Positions 5,585 to 5,680 of a DNA stretch of 64,000 nucleotides are shown piece by piece. The notes under the pieces are model-generated. The model saw only the letters and a list, made by a program, of their open reading frames with translations. It did not search any database and was not told the DNA's origin. The position numbers and the translations under genes were made by a program. Numbering within the stretch: the stretch's first letter is position 1; every line of letters begins with the position of its first letter. The stretch lies in NCBI RefSeq assembly GCF_058153355.1, contig NZ_CM177019.1; one strand, given 5' to 3'.

Positions 5585-5680
<96 letters not shown>

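Follow-up and report, generated by a model that had tools for sequence, protein, structure and literature searches.

The natural targets of IS621 in Escherichia coli (Choi, Ohta & Ohtsubo, 2003; Durrant et al., 2024) include the 11 bp sequence ATCAGGCCTAC, with a CT core, and show a recurring context in which the tail of a Z-type REP is followed by the linker ...TCTGCAATNTATTGA. According to a passage in PMC1525189, the targeting of REPs by IS621 has been recognized since Choi et al. (2003). The REP specificity of IS621, its bridge RNA mechanism (2024) and the existence of at least 100 unoccupied sites in a genome are not new here and are already published. Wild-type IS621 used 173 insertion sites in BL21(DE3), with 129 of them being ATCAGGCCTAC and 144 located in REPs, and the 11 bp target was sufficient outside the REP context, on a plasmid or an oligonucleotide (PMC11208160). 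Single target mismatches are poorly tolerated, the rG:dT pair at position 4 is the naturally tolerated one, as described in functional terms, and GCA-flanked sites are over-represented among the most-used sites (PMC11208160). The same rG:dT pair is visible in the cryo-EM structure (PMC11208158). The IS110-family elements ISPpu10 and ISPpu9 of Pseudomonas putida are likewise guided by a bridge RNA and directed to REPs, with the target in the 3' arm of the REP hairpin. However, ISPpu10 needs or benefits from the target hairpin according to a preprint, whereas the bare 11 bp sequence is enough for IS621 in the published data.

In this study, a 64,000-nt window, the whole stretch of DNA under analysis, was examined for IS621 elements and for the sites at which they attach. 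The target was taken to be an 11 bp sequence, ATC[A/G]GGCCTAC, that complements both target guides, and thus comprises the forms ATCAGGCCTAC and ATCGGGCCTAC. The REP consensus applied was GCC[T/G]GATG...ATC[A/C]GGCCTAC, and the guide-pairing model was taken from PMC11208160 and PMC11208158. A set of 5,426 complete E. coli genomes was used for comparison.

The window contains two IS621-family copies of 1,280 bp each. They have the same sequence (100% identity) and the same orientation, on the + strand. Copy 1 (7981–9260, including one CT core) was delimited from its junctions, its Pfam domains and its identity to copy 2, and occupies a Z-type REP upstream of dppA that adjoins RtT and tRNA-Pro. 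Copy 2 (42808–44087), delimited from its junctions, lies in a Z-type REP downstream of avtA. In both copies the left junction reads ATCAGGCCT/TGTATTATCC, with the element beginning TG, and the right junction reads ACAGTATCT/AC; therefore, removal of either copy rebuilds ATCAGGC-CT-AC. Both lack terminal inverted repeats and any target duplication beyond the shared CT core. The recombinase ORF, at 8173–9153 in copy 1, encodes 326 amino acids with the domains DEDD_Tnp_IS110 (PF01548, 1.8e-24) and Transposase_20 (PF02371, 3.9e-26), and near-identical ORFs are named 'IS110-like element IS621 family transposase' in RefSeq. The two occupied sites correspond to seq19 and seq7 in the natural-target list of Durrant et al. 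(2024).

The resident element is a subvariant of IS621. It is approximately 97.5% identical (1248/1280) to IS621 in other E. coli genomes, such as the copy in genome L001, and its bridge RNA carries three alterations, all within an inner hairpin; the best match to its recombinase ORF among the 5,426 genomes is 99.7% identical, in strain 2017-02-2CC. A match to Rfam naRNA4, a REP-derived nucleoid-associated RNA, at 7898–7979 (69.6 bits) abuts the left end of copy 1. The insertion is found slightly beyond the 3' end of the naRNA4 match, and the REP tail that supplied the target reaches 7980, one base further. The host Z-type REP of copy 1 (7940–7980) is missing in strain R32_14_1F, the closest IS-free relative (L004, NZ_CP074749.1, ~7100–7160), which also carries two RtT repeats compared with one in the window (9272–9406). 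The REP and RtT content upstream of dppA is therefore polymorphic among near-identical strains.

The bridge RNA of copy 1 was located by alignment to the published IS621 bridge RNA in the 178-nt 5' non-coding segment at 7995–8172 (+), which is strongly structured (z = -4.5). Only three differences from the published RNA were found (G>A, C>U and +C), all outside the guides and confined to a small hairpin inside the target-binding loop, at about 8054–8066. The same alignment places the left target guide, AUCGGGCCU, at 8044–8052 (+); its partner is the bottom strand of the target at positions 1–9. The right target guide, GUAG (8072–8075), is preceded by UGC (8069–8071), so that the segment spans 8069–8075 (+); GUAG pairs with CTAC at positions 8–11, and UGC optionally with a 3' GCA. 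The element ends, ACAGTAT-CT-TG, agree with the left donor guide ACAGUAU and the right donor guide CAAG. The resident elements thus carry the canonical IS621 guides. The REP-tail scan also picked up the left target guide, as CGTATCGGGCCTTA at 8041–8054 and 42868–42881. As this guide and the top strand of the target are of the same sense, each IS copy has an internal near-copy of its own target, which is not followed by AC after the core.

A third exact target is empty. The sequence ATCAGGCCTAC occurs on the minus strand at 5655–5665, and this is its single copy in the whole window. The initial annotation had placed the 11-mer on the minus strand at 5656–5666; the motif is present as claimed, but these coordinates are off by one, and the minus strand of 5656–5666 reads TATCAGGCCTA. 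The further claim that the empty 11-mer is identical to the site taken by both IS621 copies agrees with the flanks of both, which rebuild ATCAGGCCTAC. Its CT core (positions 8–9) lies at 5658–5657 on the minus strand, where crossover is predicted. In the scan of REP tails, three Z-type tails in the window carry the exact target, and two of these are occupied and one is empty.

The site lies between two genes of the dpp operon, named here from the RefSeq annotation of 99–99.9% identical DNA in other E. coli. The dipeptide-binding protein gene dppA (5721–7328, minus strand; an ORF of 535 amino acids matching the RefSeq annotation) is upstream of the empty site in the operon, and the permease gene dppB (4394–5413, minus strand; supported by its ORF, RefSeq annotation and a spacer colinear with that of K-12) is downstream of it. 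The spacer between them is 307 bp long (5414–5720) and reads ...AAAACTGCTGGATGCGCTCCGCTTATCAGGCCTAC/GAGAGTTCTGCAATGTATTGAGTTTGCACGATTTTGTAGGTCGGATAAGGCGTTCACGCCGCATCCGGC... on the dpp coding strand. The 11-mer was correctly described as belonging to a REP between dppB and dppA, since it is the 3' tail of the Z-type REP GCTGGATGCGCTCCGCTTATCAGGCCTAC at 5655–5683 (minus strand). A partner Y-type REP, GCCGGATGCGGCGTGAACGCCTTATCCGACCTAC, lies at 5586–5619 (+), and its tail, ATCCGACCTAC, is two mismatches from the target. The two REPs are separated by a 35 bp linker, and a match to Rfam ES036 (CssrF) on the + strand at 5620–5662 (44.8 bits against a gathering score of 37.6) covers it and overlaps the 11-mer; ES036/CssrF and naRNA4 are both REP-derived families. 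The tail scan, the hairpin folds and the two Rfam families together show extragenic, imperfect palindromes of ~30–35 bp arranged as an inverted pair, as in other E. coli BIMEs. Here the inverted Y and Z REPs, with their ES036 linker, are located inside an operon just after the gene for a binding protein. A REP feature was sought in the dppA–dppB spacer of the K-12 RefSeq record, and none is annotated.

Unlike a canonical BIME, both REPs are slightly degenerate here, the Y-type in its tail and the Z-type in its 5' arm, which reads GCTGGAT instead of the canonical GCCTGAT (two substitutions); the arm carrying the IS621 target is intact. The hairpin is weakened because of this degenerate arm, with a predicted RNA folding energy of -6.6 kcal/mol for the window allele compared with -13.2 kcal/mol for the K-12 allele. 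The GCTGGAT arm is also found in strain R32_14_1F and is therefore not a sequencing error. Strain 2017-02-2CC has a third arm allele, GCCGGAT.

Against the resident guides, ten positions of the empty site form Watson–Crick pairs and position 4 forms an rG:dT pair, with no hard mismatches. The three bases 3' of the 11-mer are GAG, compared with the preferred GCA and with GAA in the K-12 allele. Under our own pairing rule, position 12 (G) of this flank pairs with UGC, position 13 is mismatched and position 14 forms at most a wobble; the GCA extension, which is absent here, is an optional preference rather than a requirement. The site is like the listed natural targets in its 11-mer, core and context, and unlike them in being empty, in the degenerate 5' arm of its REP and in its GAG flank.

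Two other REPs in the window, at 44125–44135 and 58199–58209, had been described as one or two mismatches away from the target and as further candidate landing pads. The description holds for 44125–44135 (minus strand), the tail ATCCGGCCTAC of a Y-type REP that is the other member of the BIME into which copy 2 is inserted; this tail differs from the target by one mismatch. This is a single hard mismatch, rG:dG at position 4. It fails for 58199–58209, which has no site within two mismatches and was rejected as such: the nearest match, ATCAAGCCTGA at 58205–58215 (+), has three mismatches, two of them compatible with wobble pairing. A degenerate Y-type tail, ATCCTACCTAC, is present at 58131–58141 (minus strand). 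With a hard mismatch at position 4 in one case and a wrong description in the other, both are poor candidates for landing pads; the natural targets catalogued by Durrant et al. (2024) do include occasional sequences like 44125–44135, such as seq53 and seq54.

The use of the dpp site in other genomes was examined with a synthetic junction as query, consisting of the dppA-side flank joined to the left end of IS621, as would arise from insertion at 5657/5656. The predicted junction was matched end to end in five of the 5,426 genomes. Two of these five (L001 and L002) were inspected, and their RefSeq annotation gives dppA, then an IS621 family transposase, then dppB on one strand. Their junctions are as predicted, ...CTTATCAGGCCT/TGTATTATCC on one side and ACAGTATCT/ACGAAAATTC on the other, and removal of the element in silico leaves a 307 bp spacer colinear with that of the window and of K-12 MG1655. 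All four aligned alleles (window, K-12, L001 and L002) have the 11-mer at position 56 of the spacer, and it is also present in the same REP of L004 and L005. The orthologous dpp site has therefore been used for insertion, with exact junctions and in the predicted orientation, in five other genomes whose allele is not that of the window, and comparison with insertion sites in related genomes, as the initial annotation had proposed, bears out its reading of this REP as a candidate landing pad. Durrant et al. (2024) list the rebuilt 50-mer of the occupied dpp allele as seq458 (their Supplementary Data 2), and the site is thus a known natural target of IS621.

IS621-family elements are present in 1,685 of the 5,426 genomes and add up to 12,311 copies, the median number being 8 and the highest 28. 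A query made of the IS plus its flank was matched over its full length at 99% identity or better in none of the 5,426 genomes. The dpp site is occupied in 5 genomes, the copy-1 site in 214 and the copy-2 site downstream of avtA in 23, all being counts from phylogenetically non-independent genomes. Among close relatives carrying 7–21 IS621 copies (contiguous matches H5–H7 and H9), the dpp site is empty. Neither L001 nor L002 has an IS between dppA and the RtT/tRNA-Pro region, so that the copy-1 site is empty in both.

The mechanism of IS621 insertion is established in the literature, and its application to the dpp site is what we infer here. The Z-type REP carrying the 11-mer is one half of a Y–linker–Z BIME conserved in the dppA–dppB spacer of E. 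coli. An excised, circular IS621 would express its own bridge RNA, of which the left target guide AUCGGGCCU would pair with the bottom strand of ATCAGGCCT, position 4 forming the one rG:dT pair, and the right target guide GUAG with CTAC on the top strand. The DEDD/serine recombinase would then swap strands at the CT core. On the minus strand the element would thus enter between 5657 and 5656, and its recombinase gene would be co-directional with dppA and dppB. As IS621 appears to have evolved to attach at exactly this REP tail, the dpp 11-mer would be a competent, empty target.

Two other readings need to be weighed against this one. That the 11-mer match is a coincidence, related neither to REPs nor to IS621, is hardly credible: only the short length of the motif speaks for it, and a shuffled window gives an expectation of 0.02 chance matches per window. 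The match is found in spite of this low expectation because the 11-mer is the conserved tail of a REP. The motif sits inside a recognizable REP/BIME with an Rfam ES036 linker and is conserved at the corresponding position of other E. coli spacers, and some other genomes carry IS621 at this orthologous site; chance was rejected on this conserved position and on the REP-tail scan set against the expected 0.02. The other reading takes the 11-mer as a REP tail only, which in this genome is effectively a poor or non-permissive target and would be kept empty by its weak REP hairpin, the missing GCA flank and selection against splitting the dppABCDF operon. The halved folding energy of the dpp Z-type REP is in line with this, given that the target hairpin potentiates recombination by ISPpu10 about twofold (2026 preprint), as is a GAG flank where the most-used IS621 sites are enriched in GCA. 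Furthermore, the occupied dpp genomes number only five, all with the canonical-arm allele, compared with 214 at the copy-1 site, and relatives with up to 21 IS621 copies have left the dpp site empty. However, IS621 recombines the 11 bp target in non-REP DNA both in vitro and on plasmids, and the occupied sites of the window itself, with the 3' flanks GTT and ATC, also lack a full GCA. Insertion inside the dpp operon is viable, as the five occupied genomes show, and when ~10 copies are distributed over at least 130 sites, a given site is expected to be empty. The occupancy counts come from genomes that are phylogenetically non-independent. A poor or non-permissive target is accordingly an unlikely reading.

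The evidence points instead to a REP-tail 11-mer that is very probably a competent, empty and ordinary target for two identical, apparently active IS621 copies. The dpp site would in all likelihood be one of at least ~130 equivalent sites per E. coli genome, with no special status. As 129 exact-target sites were used in BL21(DE3), most REPs of this kind will normally carry their perfect site unoccupied. It is quite improbable that the dpp site is a disfavoured rather than an average target; possible causes of its low use are chance, shared ancestry that inflates the other counts, the non-GCA flank, selection against a 1.28 kb insertion in the dpp operon and, in the window allele, the weakened hairpin. 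If the disfavoured-site reading were true, selection against operon splitting would be visible in site-occupancy spectra, and if IS621 were potentiated by a hairpin in the manner of ISPpu10, decay of the REP arm would be a natural escape route from RNA-guided insertion.

The dpp site is a genuine but unremarkable attachment site that is unoccupied, and an RNA-guided insertion site of this kind can be recognized from sequence alone. A further IS621 copy could land here, and the dpp operon would then contain a 1.28 kb element, inverted with respect to copy 1 and 2.3 kb away from it. The resulting inverted 1.28 kb repeats around dppA could permit inversion of dppA by homologous recombination.
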